Of a stretch of 19,757 nucleotides of DNA, positions 16,120 to 18,309 are shown in pieces. Below the pieces are notes generated by a model that worked only from the letters and a program-made list of their open reading frames with translations, ran no database searches and was not told the DNA's origin. This stretch comes from Candidatus Iainarchaeum sp. (GTDB lineage Archaea > Iainarchaeota > Iainarchaeia > Iainarchaeales > GCA-2688035). The DNA is taken from the NCBI GenBank assembly GCA_028713935.1, contig JAQTNI010000024.1, forward strand, positions 1 to 19,757, read 5' to 3'. The first letter of the stretch is position 1; the number at the start of each line of letters is the position of its first letter. The position numbers and the translations under genes are program-made.

Positions 16120-18309
16120 ATGTGTGGCATTGCAGGCTTTTTCGGTTTTGAAGATAGTTTTGAAAAAGCGAGAAAAGCTGTTTTTGAAATAAGGGAAAGG
16201 GGAATTGACGGCTTTGGTTTCAGCAATGGCAGGCAAATTGTTTTTGAAAAAGAACTTGAAAAAATTCCTGTTTTGGAAGGAAAAAATTGTGTTGCCCATT
16301 GCCTGCACAGCCTTGTTGGATTTGTTTCCCAGCCTTTGAAAGGGAAAGGCCTTCTTATTGCAAACTGTGAAATTTATAATTGGAAAGAATTGAATGAAAA
16401 AAATGGTTTTGGCGCAAAAAATGATGCGGAATTGCTCTTGAAATTGATTGAAAAAAATGGCTTGGGAAAAATAAAAGAAACTTTGGAAGAACTGGACGGG
16501 ACTTATGCATTTGCTTATTGGCTTGGAGGCAAGGTTATTATTGCAAGAGACCTGCTTGGGATAAAGCCATTGAATTATTCTCTGGAGAAGGGATTCGCGT
16601 TTGCATCTGAAAGGAAAGCTTTGGAAGCGGCGGGAATTTCCGGAATAATTGATTTGAATCCGAGGCAGATTCTGGAATTCAATATTAAAACAAAAAAAAT
16701 CCGCATAATAAAAAGAAATTTTTTTGAAACAGCGGAAAAAAAATTTTCTGAAAAAGAGGCAGTGGAAAAATTGCTTTCTGTTTTAGGCGAAGCTGTTAAA
16801 AAAAGGGTTCCTGAAAAAAAATTTGGATTGCTTTTTTCAGGGGGAATTGATTCAACTGCAATTGCGTTGATTCTGAAAAGGCTTGGCTGTGATTTCAAAT
16901 GCTATTTTGCTTTTGCGGAAGGAAAAGAGCTTGGAATTCCGAGGGACATTGCTTTTGCAAAAAAAATTTCTGAAACACTGGGCTTGAAACTGGAAATTGT
17001 TCCTGCAAGCATGGAAAAAACAGAAGAATGCCTGAAAAAAATTGTGCCTTTGATTGAAAGCTCAAATCCAATGAAAGCGGGAGTTGCATTGCCCTTCTTT
17101 GTGGCATGTGAAAAGGCAAGGGCAGACGGGATAAAAGCAATGTTTTCCGGGCTGGGTTCTGATGAATTGTTTGCCGGCTACAAAAGGTTTTCGCGTTCAA
17201 ATGACCTGAACGAGGATTCAAGGAATTTGCTGCTGCAGATGTATGAGAATGATTTTTACAGGGACGATATTGTGCTTATGCACCACAACATTGAATTGCG
17301 GCTTCCTTTTCTTGACAAAAAGGTGGTTGAATTTGCATTGCAATTGCCAAGGGAGCTGAAGATTAAGGGGAAAACAAACAAGCTTGTCCTGAGAAAAGCA
17401 GCTGAGTCAATTGGCCTGCCGGAAGAATTTGCTTTCAGGGGAAAAACTTCTGCGCAGTATGGAAGCAATTTTGACAAGGCAATTGAAAAAATTGCTCGGA
17501 AAAAAGGCTTCGGGCAGAAAACTGTTTTTTTGAATTCCCTTGCAAAAAAAAAGAACCTTAAACTGGGAGTGCTTTTTTCAGGCGGCAAGGACAGCTGCCT
17601 TGCGCTCTGGCTAATGAAACAGCAGAACTATGAAATTTCGTGCCTAATTTCAATGCAGTCAAAAAACCAGGATTCGTTCATGTTCCATAAGCCGGATGGA
17701 AAAATATTGAAAATGCAGTCAGAGGCATCAGGAATCCCGATTGTAATCGGCGCTACAAAAGGCGAAAAGGAAAAAGAACTGCTTGATTTTAAAAAAACAA
17801 TTGTCACTGCAAAAAAAAAATTCTGCTTGGATGGAATTGTTTCAGGCGCTGTTTACAGCAATTACCAGCGAAAAAGAATACAGGCAATTGCAGAAGAGCT
17901 TGGCTTGAAGGTTTTTTCGCCTCTCTGGCACTGGAAACAAGGCGATGTGCTGAAAACTTTGCTGAACTGGAAATTTGAATTTGTTTTGTCAAAAATTGCC
18001 GCAAAAGGCCTTGATGAAAAAATTTTGGGAAAAACAATTTTTTGGAAGGAAACTAATTTTTTGCTCAATCTGGAGAAAAAAACAGGCTTCAATGCGGCGG
18101 GAGAAGGCGGGGAATTTGAAAGCATTATATTGGATGCGCCTTTTTTCAAAAAGAAAATTTTGCTTGGTGAAACCGCAAAAAAAATGAGGAACGAATGCAC
18201 AGGGGAATTGCTGATAAAAAAGGCTTTTTTTGTTGAAAAAAACTTTTTCGAAGCGCTCGCAGATGCTCGCTTTCAAAAAGTTTACAAAAAAAATGCTTCT
18301 AAATTATGA
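16120..18309 (+). CDS. Fusion protein: AsnB-like class II glutamine amidotransferase + asparagine-synthetase PP-loop domain + Dph6/DUF71 (MJ0570-like, diphthine-ammonia-ligase family) PP-loop domain
   Basis: The N-terminal MCGIAGF provides the Ntn Cys2. NCEIYN and NDAELLL are also present. FSGGIDSTAIA is the AsnB PP-loop. From about aa 486 the sequence reads LGVLFSGGKDSCLALW...FMFH...GIVSGAVYSNYQRKRI...SPLW...GEGGEFESIILDAPFF, which matches the DUF71/ATP_bind_4 pattern. It is a single open frame of 729 aa. Confidence 0.88.
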   Translation: MCGIAGFFGFEDSFEKARKAVFEIRERGIDGFGFSNGRQIVFEKELEKIPVLEGKNCVAHCLHSLVGFVSQPLKGKGLLIANCEIYNWKELNEKNGFGAKNDAELLLKLIEKNGLGKIKETLEELDGTYAFAYWLGGKVIIARDLLGIKPLNYSLEKGFAFASERKALEAAGISGIIDLNPRQILEFNIKTKKIRIIKRNFFETAEKKFSEKEAVEKLLSVLGEAVKKRVPEKKFGLLFSGGIDSTAIALILKRLGCDFKCYFAFAEGKELGIPRDIAFAKKISETLGLKLEIVPASMEKTEECLKKIVPLIESSNPMKAGVALPFFVACEKARADGIKAMFSGLGSDELFAGYKRFSRSNDLNEDSRNLLLQMYENDFYRDDIVLMHHNIELRLPFLDKKVVEFALQLPRELKIKGKTNKLVLRKAAESIGLPEEFAFRGKTSAQYGSNFDKAIEKIARKKGFGQKTVFLNSLAKKKNLKLGVLFSGGKDSCLALWLMKQQNYEISCLISMQSKNQDSFMFHKPDGKILKMQSEASGIPIVIGATKGEKEKELLDFKKTIVTAKKKFCLDGIVSGAVYSNYQRKRIQAIAEELGLKVFSPLWHWKQGDVLKTLLNWKFEFVLSKIAAKGLDEKILGKTIFWKETNFLLNLEKKTGFNAAGEGGEFESIILDAPFFKKKILLGETAKKMRNECTGELLIKKAFFVEKNFFEALADARFQKVYKKNASKL

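Follow-up and report, generated by a model that had tools for sequence, protein, structure and literature searches.

What does an archaeal protein do with one glutaminase domain and two different PP-loop (ATP pyrophosphatase) domains in a single chain? The question is raised by a gene at positions 16120–18309 of the forward strand in a 19,757-nt stretch of contig JAQTNI010000024.1 (assembly GCA_028713935.1) from the DPANN archaeon Candidatus Iainarchaeum sp.; the whole stretch is referred to below as the window. The encoded protein joins a unit resembling the asparagine synthetase AsnB to a domain of the Dph6 (DUF71) family. Diphthamide, a conserved modification of elongation factor 2 (EF-2), supports the fidelity of translation. 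For its last step, Dph6 uses ATP to adenylate the diphthine carboxylate on EF-2, and amidation then gives diphthamide; this step is thought to use free ammonium, and in vitro work on yeast Dph6 reportedly employed ammonium as the donor.

The answer that we favour, at slightly better than even confidence, is that the AsnB-like half would be a dedicated partner in the diphthamide pathway and the whole protein a single-chain, three-module diphthamide synthetase. The discovery is a modest one: the architecture is already published and annotated, and the functional reading comes from sequence and gene context. The parts of the gene, all on the plus strand, are listed here with the basis for each.

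16120–18309, plus strand: whole open reading frame (ORF), AsnB-like module plus Dph6, 729 aa plus stop (ORF check, NCBI entry, AlphaFold2 model)
16120–16719, plus strand: module 1, class II (N-terminal nucleophile, Ntn) glutaminase domain, residues 1–200 (GATase_7 and GATase_6 matches)
Residues 1–7, plus strand: MCGIAGF, N-terminal end of the glutaminase (sequence)
16123–16125, plus strand: Cys2, putative catalytic N-terminal nucleophile after Met removal (role inferred from AsnB/ASNS Cys1, PMC6748925)
16294–16314, plus strand: AHCLHSL, residues 59–65; position 61 (Cys) is the site of AsnB Arg49/human Arg48 (alignment)
16363–16383, plus strand: NCEIYNW, residues 82–88, oxyanion-hole motif; Cys83 at the AsnB Gly75 site (alignment)
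16720–17466, plus strand: module 2, AsnB-type PP-loop (ATP pyrophosphatase) domain, residues 201–449 (Asn_synthase match)
16837–16854, plus strand: first PP-loop, SGGIDS, residues 240–245 (motif, alignment)
17146–17166, plus strand: SGLGSDE, residues 343–349; Leu345 at the position of human ASNS Glu364 (alignment)
17467–17559, plus strand: two-helix linker, residues 450–480, site of natural gene fissions (model, unfused relatives)
17544–17552, plus strand: A9 homopolymer in the AKKKN codons, A475–N479 (sequence)
17560–18237, plus strand: module 3, Dph6 (diphthine--ammonia ligase, DUF71) domain, residues 481–706 (PF01902, TIGR03679, phmmer, fold)
17578–17595, plus strand: second PP-loop, SGGKDS, residues 487–492 (invariant motif)
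Residues 582–587, plus strand: YQRKRI motif (sequence)
Residues 662–668, plus strand: EGGEFES, with EGGEFE at 18103–18120 (invariant motif)
18238–18306, plus strand: private C-terminal tail KNFFEALADARFQKVYKKNASKL, residues 707–729, probably disordered (alignment, pLDDT)

One reading frame and three modules

An ORF check of the window confirmed a single 729-aa frame with an ATG start, as the preliminary description of this DNA had reported, and every motif quoted there was located in its place. The exact protein is public (P0001) under the NCBI name 'diphthine--ammonia ligase [Candidatus ainarchaeum sp.]', with the window as its source contig. The proposed three-module architecture was likewise borne out by mapping with profile hidden Markov models: in Pfam searches, GATase_7 matched residues 71–169 (E = 4e-18), Asn_synthase matched from residue 218 onwards (E = 1e-45), and Diphthami_syn_2 (PF01902) matched residues 481–702 (E = 6.6e-57). 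The 120 best database hits, which were used for the conservation counts given below, have the same three-module layout without exception (120/120; 681–731 aa, 47–84% identity).

The 729-aa protein was modelled by AlphaFold2 from an alignment of 120 sequences, with a mean predicted local distance difference test score (pLDDT) of 91.2 and a predicted template-modelling score (pTM) of 0.88. Predicted disorder is confined to the 23-residue C-terminal tail, which was found in no relative and has pLDDT < 50 at residues 710–715 and 721–729; the two helices of the linker span residues 451–461 and 467–474. Modules 1 and 2 superposed on E. coli AsnB and human asparagine synthetase (ASNS) with target-normalised template-modelling (TM) scores of 0.77–0.79 over ~500 columns, and no solved structure covering all three modules was among the fold matches of the model. 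Because the pTM of 0.88 applies across all 729 residues, the placement of Dph6 on the AsnB-like body appears to be defined.

The C-terminal module had been assigned to the Dph6/DUF71 family, and the profile data agree. In addition to the PF01902 match, the NCBIfam profile TIGR03679 (Dph6_archaeal) aligned over its positions 2–217 of 218 and, with 232.9 bits, exceeded its curated cut-off of 197.3; phmmer gave E values of 1.7e-50 to PH1257 and 5e-49 to PF0828. The modelled fold matched the structures 3rk1, 2d13 and 3rjz of these two proteins with target-normalised TM scores of 0.93–0.95 (root mean square deviation (rmsd) 1.2–2.2 Å), and the AMP complex 3rk0 with a TM score of 0.90 (rmsd 3.1 Å). 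Ser487, Gly489, Lys490, Asp491, Ser492, Glu662, Gly663, Gly664, Glu665 and Glu667 are invariant in the 120 sequences. The PF0828 residues previously placed at the EF-2 interface are S44, Y45, E78, Y103, Q104, A149, E183, E186 and E188 (PMC3541065); their equivalents in the window protein are S519, F520, E553, Y582, Q583, A628, E662, E665 and E667, so that eight of nine are identical and Y45 corresponds to a Phe here and to a Tyr in the family consensus. The Dph6 module thus looks fully competent, and the C-terminal domain is very probably the organism's Dph6, diphthine--ammonia ligase (EC 6.3.1.14; family models TIGR03679 and PF01902 plus PF28410). A second dph gene was not found within the 19.8-kb window. 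For three methanogens with complete genomes that carry the fused or an operon-linked form of the gene, M. mahii, M. zhilinae and M. evestigatum, one DUF71 gene each is listed (Table S1 of PMC3541065), and since the count is one, this gene is the sole candidate Dph6 of those three organisms.

A gene of this kind could arise on paper only, if adjacent asnB-like and dph6 genes had been joined by an assembly or sequencing error in the length of the A9 tract. The homopolymer does sit at the domain junction, and split versions of the pair exist in Methanohalobium. The fused frame is, however, uninterrupted in 177 distinct full-length proteins from independent assemblies; the linker can be aligned residue by residue throughout the fused family; and the junction was modelled confidently by AlphaFold2. 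In L003, an independent metagenome-assembled genome whose protein shares 84% amino acid identity, the A9 tract is identical and in frame. A length error is effectively ruled out by L003, the 177 fused proteins and the linker alignment, and the probability left to an artefact is vanishingly small. The tract had been flagged earlier as a place where the frame might split, a concern that proved irrelevant, as it is in frame in L003 and is one of eight A-runs of at least 8 bases in this Lys-rich gene, where a run of ten (A10) occurs as well, at 17811–17820. The fused ORF is confirmed as real.

An AsnB domain (class II glutamine amidotransferase (GAT-II) plus Asn_synthase PP-loop) placed N-terminal to DUF71 was described by de Crécy-Lagard et al. 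(2012, Biol Direct 7:32, PMC3541065), who named Methanohalophilus mahii, Methanosalsum zhilinae and 'Ca. Nanosalinarum' as hosts and proposed that the glutaminase provides NH3 to both PP-loop domains. In the same publication the reviewer L. Aravind asked which of the PP-loop domains receives the ammonia and which reaction the AsnB-like domain carries out; the publication left both points open (PMC3541065). The window protein is a further member of this fusion family. The M. mahii genome paper mentions neither asparagine nor diphthamide, and a literature search found no paper on a glutamine-dependent Dph6.

Species-representative genomes, one per species, were scanned with the AsnB-like module only as the query, which matched at least 599 stretches and gave at least 500 relatives. 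At each of the 80 best loci a Dph6 domain lies in the same ORF; 76 of these ORFs are complete (672–734 aa) and four run off the end of a contig. On the basis of the 177 distinct fused proteins and all 80 best loci, the fusion is under selection. Carriers among DPANN archaea belong to Iainarchaeota/Diapherotrites, Woesearchaeota, Nanoarchaeota and Micrarchaeota; others are a metagenome-assembled genome labelled Methanofastidiosia and the cultured Methanosarcinaceae Methanolobus (several species), Methanomethylovorans and Methanosalsum. Two statements of the preliminary description have to be given up here. The fusion cannot be called unusual: it has been in print since 2012, has at least 500 relatives and is annotated by the Prokaryotic Genome Annotation Pipeline (PGAP), and the search of other archaea found the architecture common. 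Nor is it a quirk of reduced genomes, since it is shared by cultured, free-living Methanosarcinaceae of the three genera just named. Many loci titled 'uncultured Methanosarcinales archaeon' (L007, L009, L020, L026 and others) have the DPANN-type motif SGLGSEE and so differ from named Methanolobus and Methanomethylovorans, which have SGSGADE; the taxonomy labels of such metagenome-assembled genomes may be unreliable.

Active sites of the AsnB-like half

Cys2 is present in 119 of the 119 sequences aligned at that position, the 120th hit having an alignment gap, and in all but one of 175 grouped fused proteins, the exception again being a gap. Asn82, Glu84 and Asp102, the equivalents of AsnB Asn74, Glu76 and Asp96/98, are invariant or nearly so in the 120 sequences, and Glu392, which corresponds to the human interface residue Glu414, occurs in all 120. 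Judged by these five retained residues, the glutaminase looks alive.

For human ASNS, a glutamine-binding network of Asn74/Gly75/Glu76 and Arg48 has been described (PMC6748925). The AsnB/ASNS set is incomplete in the window protein, where Cys stands in place of the Arg and again in place of the Gly. Both deviations had been picked out as oddities of this gene (AHCLHSL without the Arg, and NCEIYN for NGEIYN); they are present, but they are traits common to the family rather than private to this protein. Position 61 is variable in the 120 sequences (Cys 52, Ala 21, Thr 15, Val 11, Leu 7, Asn 6, Ser 5, Arg 2, Lys 1); in a set of 14 methanogen-type sequences, five keep the Arg (HRLHS). Position 83 is Cys in 114/120 and Gly in one; at the best 80 genome loci it is Cys in 78, as NCEIYNW in 75 and NCE[VL]YNW in three. 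His63, found in 118/120 and absent from canonical AsnB/ASNS, may substitute for the lost Arg.

The middle domain had been taken for an AsnB synthetase, a label that does not hold up well at the level of the catalytic site, where SGLGSDE replaces SGEGSDE and the catalytic Glu is absent. The canonical Glu position is occupied by Leu345 in the window protein and by Leu in 118/120 best hits; we take it to be Glu348 in E. coli AsnB numbering. Among the 177 distinct fused proteins the residue is Leu in 161, Ser in 14, Thr in one and Ile in one, and it is never Glu; none of 113 motif-matching representatives among the top 150 has a Glu there either. The Ser variant, SGSGADE, is a mark of the methanogen clade. 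Human ASNS carrying E364A or E364Q is inactive, even when ammonium supplies the nitrogen (PMC6748925). Because this essential residue is absent, the middle domain is probably no true, working asparagine synthetase.

The remainder of the site is well kept. Ser240, Gly242, Asp244 and Ser245 of the PP-loop are present in 120/120 and Gly241 in 119/120; Lys442, the equivalent of the essential human Lys466, is invariant; and hardly any of the 120 sequences departs from Arg381, Asp378 or the acidic pair at 348/349. A site that is nearly invariant and yet has lost its Glu argues that the domain is strongly selected, and not for the canonical conversion of aspartate to asparagine. The canonical C-terminal part is also missing. 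Alignment to human ASNS stops at query residue 445 (residue 470 of 561); module 2 is cut after the K442/AQYGS motif, with ~90–100 C-terminal residues of canonical AsnB missing, and the two-helix linker and the Dph6 domain occupy their place.

These data bear on two other explanations of the protein. According to the 2012 proposal (PMC3541065), which was also the alternative given in the preliminary description, the protein would be bifunctional: modules 1 and 2 would make free asparagine, with Dph6 fused for co-expression or to share the glutaminase that, as first suggested, serves both PP-loop domains. The NCBIfam asparagine synthase profile TIGR01536 is indeed missed only marginally (265.8 bits against a cut-off of 267.1, i.e. 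by 1.3 bits), the aspartyl-AMP pocket is mostly kept (D/E348, E349, D378, R381 and K442), and DPANN genome papers treat the gene as AsnB, among the few amino acid synthesis genes retained (PMC10266531). We nevertheless regard this explanation as rather unlikely. More than 170 family members all lack the Glu that is essential in human ASNS; the Arg that binds Gln has gone, another residue stands in for the Gly of the oxyanion hole, and the AsnB C-terminal part is absent; the linkage to diphthamide genes described below, which includes dph2, would not be expected of a housekeeping AsnB. There is, in addition, a precedent for annotated 'AsnB' homologues that amidate other carboxylates, namely the meso-diaminopimelate (mDAP) amidotransferases of peptidoglycan, which are told apart by changes in substrate-binding residues (PMC8554201).

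The same precedent (PMC8554201) supports the second explanation, by which the AsnB-like domain would adenylate and amidate another carboxylate, on an EF-2 residue or intermediate or on a component of translation, so that two amidations would be coupled. Invariance of the PP-loop and of Lys442 argues for ATP-dependent catalysis; replacement of Glu by Leu or Ser, with a pocket able to accommodate a cationic group kept, is the pattern of a substrate change; and Aravind's question about what the domain catalyses was left without an answer in 2012 (PMC3541065). However, the archaeal diphthamide pathway consists of Dph2, Dph5 and Dph6 and has no known second amidation (PMC6143161), the gene neighbourhoods examined suggest no other substrate, and the proposal is wholly inferential. 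We consider a second amidation unlikely, more so than asparagine synthesis.

Gene linkage and the proposed role

Unfused relatives of the AsnB-like module were sought with the module of Methanolobus profundi and then exhaustively against 1.84 billion cluster representatives. Those recovered end within the linker segment and have the same active-site signature. In Methanohalobium, the AsnB-like gene and a separate dph6 gene encoding 233 aa overlap by 14 nt (ATGAAAAATCCTAA), an arrangement seen in two metagenome-assembled genomes, in a Logan contig and in M. evestigatum Z-7303, the type strain, whose genome is complete (CP002069.1) and whose AsnB-like protein is ADI74389. The dph6 gene starts at the equivalent of 'N-L-K-L-G-V' of the fused protein, and the pair reads as a clean natural fission with predicted translational coupling. 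In an uncultured lineage (P0245), a gene for a 231-aa Dph2 fragment (PF01866, 157 bits; TIGR03682 positions 72–292 of 308) lies 22 nt downstream of an unfused AsnB-like gene and in the same orientation, and contigs from three sources have this arrangement; split Dph2 genes are known in DPANN archaea (PMC6143161). In the third unfused case, P0209, one in-frame TGA interrupts the linker.

This TGA case (KLA*RNKFKTKSEYL) lies at L084 1041–3140 and L085 1168–3267, where 2100 nt are identical in independent ENA and JGI metagenomes. The stop codon could have arisen by a recent nonsense mutation, could mark a true split with reinitiation, or could be read through or recoded.

Linkage to dph genes is frequent and involves two different dph genes, and it is not universal; an obligate link between the AsnB-like module and Dph6 was dropped as an interpretation in view of the unfused copies that lie on short contigs and lack a dph neighbour. 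The fused gene has no conserved neighbourhood, with no adjoining dph2, dph5 or EF-2 gene on two long DPANN contigs and in Methanolobus profundi, and no synteny was found between the Methanolobus and Methanohalobium loci.

Three independent kinds of linkage support a role of the AsnB-like half in diphthamide synthesis: its fusion to Dph6, the overlap with dph6 in Methanohalobium, and the adjacency to a dph2 fragment. The last two lend support to the suggestion, made in the preliminary description, that ammonia for the diphthamide amidation comes from the glutaminase. In the mechanism that we propose, the Cys2 Ntn glutaminase would free ammonia from glutamine or a similar amide donor, and the ammonia would travel through an AsnB-type interdomain conduit to the Dph6 site. 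Dph6 would take the place of the AsnB C-terminal subdomain and is predicted to pack rigidly on the AsnB-like body. At the Dph6 site, ATP would adenylate the diphthine carboxylate, which would then be amidated with the delivered ammonia, so that glutamine, and not free ammonium, would be the nitrogen source. For the middle PP-loop domain two roles are conceivable: when it binds ATP it could gate or regulate the delivery of ammonia, or it could perform a second adenylation. Taken together, amide hydrolysis and ammonia transfer of this kind would make the protein a glutamine-dependent diphthamide synthetase.

The proposal can be extended to every AsnB-like protein with the signature HxLH[SA], N-C-E-I-Y-N-W and SG[LS]G without the Glu, whether fused to Dph6, operon-linked or alone; the signature occurs in all three settings. 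Such proteins might all be glutaminase/ammonia subunits of a previously undescribed glutamine-dependent diphthamide synthetase rather than asparagine synthetases; this wider claim is put forward tentatively, its chances being a little short of even.

Several points weigh against a diphthamide-specific, glutamine-dependent role. In most archaea a standalone Dph6 does its work with no partner of this kind. That glutamine is the donor is uncertain, because the Arg that binds its α-carboxylate is lost in most DPANN members, and the conduit to the Dph6 site is putative, suggested by the pTM of 0.88 and by the replacement of the AsnB subdomain by Dph6. The near-invariant site of the middle PP-loop is left unexplained by a pure ammonia-conduit role; near-complete conservation of the PP-loop, Lys442, Arg381, Asp378 and residues 348/349 argues for real catalysis there. 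Four other unfused copies with the signature have no dph gene on their mostly short contigs, and a more distant AsnB-like relative in Methanothermobacter adjoins a gatC-like gene and no dph gene. The literature search, finally, found no later paper testing the 2012 proposal and no assay of any fused member.

If the proposal is true, a large group of archaea runs a glutamine-dependent last step of diphthamide synthesis; on the wider claim, this is a second form of the step in Archaea, and many 'AsnB' annotations in DPANN archaea and methylotrophic methanogens are wrong. The asnB gene, often the sole amino acid biosynthesis gene credited to DPANN archaea, would become a gene for translation factor modification, and metabolic reconstructions of DPANN symbionts would change. 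The question raised in 2012 about the second PP-loop domain would also become directly testable, for which the two-gene version in cultured Methanohalobium evestigatum is convenient.

Neighbouring genes and comparison with known systems

Upstream of the fused gene, the 275 bp at 15845–16119 contain a dense array of short AAGCTT-centred palindromes and hairpins, for example the palindromes AAAAGCTTTGC / GCAAAGCTTTT at 15962–15972 and 16107–16117 and a hairpin at 15956–15982. This segment gave no Rfam or tRNA match, and Rfam and tRNA scans of the whole window found no RNA genes. Directly downstream lies a gene for an MscS-type mechanosensitive channel (18347–19480), and an MscS-type gene also directly follows P0236, an unfused AsnB-like gene with the signature, on an unrelated contig (L088 3011–3637); the two genes may form a conserved pair, or their adjacency may be coincidental. 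On the strand opposite the fused P0064 gene, and abutting or overlapping it, is a small gene with an S4 domain (S4_2; L001 9736–10014, minus strand), and an S4_2 gene has the same relation to the unfused P0233 gene (L093 6401–6616, minus strand).

Elsewhere in the window, two tandem ATP-grasp genes resembling D-Ala-D-Ala ligase (9318–12527, plus strand) scored 197 and 167 bits against an NCBIfam cut-off of 243. They are directly followed by a gene for a KamA-family 2,3-aminomutase (AblA, 492.8 against 525 bits; glutamate 2,3-aminomutase, 450 bits), and the cluster could make and ligate a β-amino acid on this DPANN contig. A 1455-aa ORF at 639–5006 (plus strand) has a weak Ig-like (Big_13) match and presumably encodes a large surface protein.

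The window protein agrees with the fusions described in 2012 in its three modules and their order (GAT-II, then Asn_synthase PP-loop, then DUF71) and in the suggested role, the supply of glutamine-derived NH3. The methanogen fusions of Methanolobus, Methanomethylovorans and Methanosalsum (including M. natronophilum) are full-length proteins of 712–742 aa that share its Pfam domains; residues 1–468 of the window protein align with their AsnB-like modules at 45–49% identity, and they formed one clade in a rough neighbour-joining tree of full-length sequences. Unlike these members from methylotrophic methanogens, the window protein comes from a DPANN archaeon (Iainarchaeota/'ainarchaeum'), has Leu where they have Ser at the position of the lost Glu, and lacks the Arg that some of them keep. 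Active sites were not analysed in the 2012 paper, which did not settle what the middle domain does (PMC3541065); new here are the analysis of these sites and the evidence of linkage, by the operon and to dph2.

With the glutamine-hydrolysing asparagine synthetases (EC 6.3.5.4) E. coli AsnB (1CT9) and human ASNS (6GQ3), modules 1 and 2 share the two-domain fold, equivalents of Cys1, Asn74, Glu76 and Asp96/98, the SGGxDS PP-loop, the essential Lys and the equivalent of the interface residue Glu414. They differ in that Leu replaces Glu348/364, Cys replaces both Gly75 and Arg49/48 (the latter site varies within the family) and His63 is added; the C-terminal ~90–100 residues are exchanged for the linker and Dph6, and the TIGR01536 score is below its cut-off. 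The 'asparagine synthetase B' of Methanothermobacter wolfeii (P0315, WP_261599878.1) belongs to the same broad clade without the catalytic Glu (SGQGADE). It matches modules 1 and 2 in length and domain order, is 34–39% identical and keeps Gly75, and the genes around it encode a GatC-like protein, an ACT-domain protein and homoserine dehydrogenase. At the two M. wolfeii loci (L090/L091 5001–6880), the catalytic Glu position is Gln and the gatC-like gene lies ~245 nt downstream. Going by this substitution, the M. wolfeii protein may be no canonical asparagine synthetase either.

Archaeal Dph6 proteins, both typical and solved, are standalone enzymes of ~220–235 aa, whereas here Dph6 forms the C terminus of a 729-aa protein; its 225 C-terminal residues share the fold, PP-loop, EGGEFE motif and proposed EF-2-interface residues with PH1257 (PDB 2D13) and PF0828 (PDB 3RJZ/3RK0/3RK1). 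Fusion of eukaryotic Dph6 to YjgF-like domains, mentioned in the preliminary description, is documented for the yeast and plant enzymes (PMC3541065). In these, too, the Dph6 domain is joined to a domain that might deliver ammonia, an idea put forward in the same paper (PMC3541065). The yeast and plant proteins have DUF71 followed by two C-terminal YjgF/RidA domains, whereas in the archaeal fusion the added part is N-terminal and consists of an unrelated Ntn glutaminase and a PP-loop domain.

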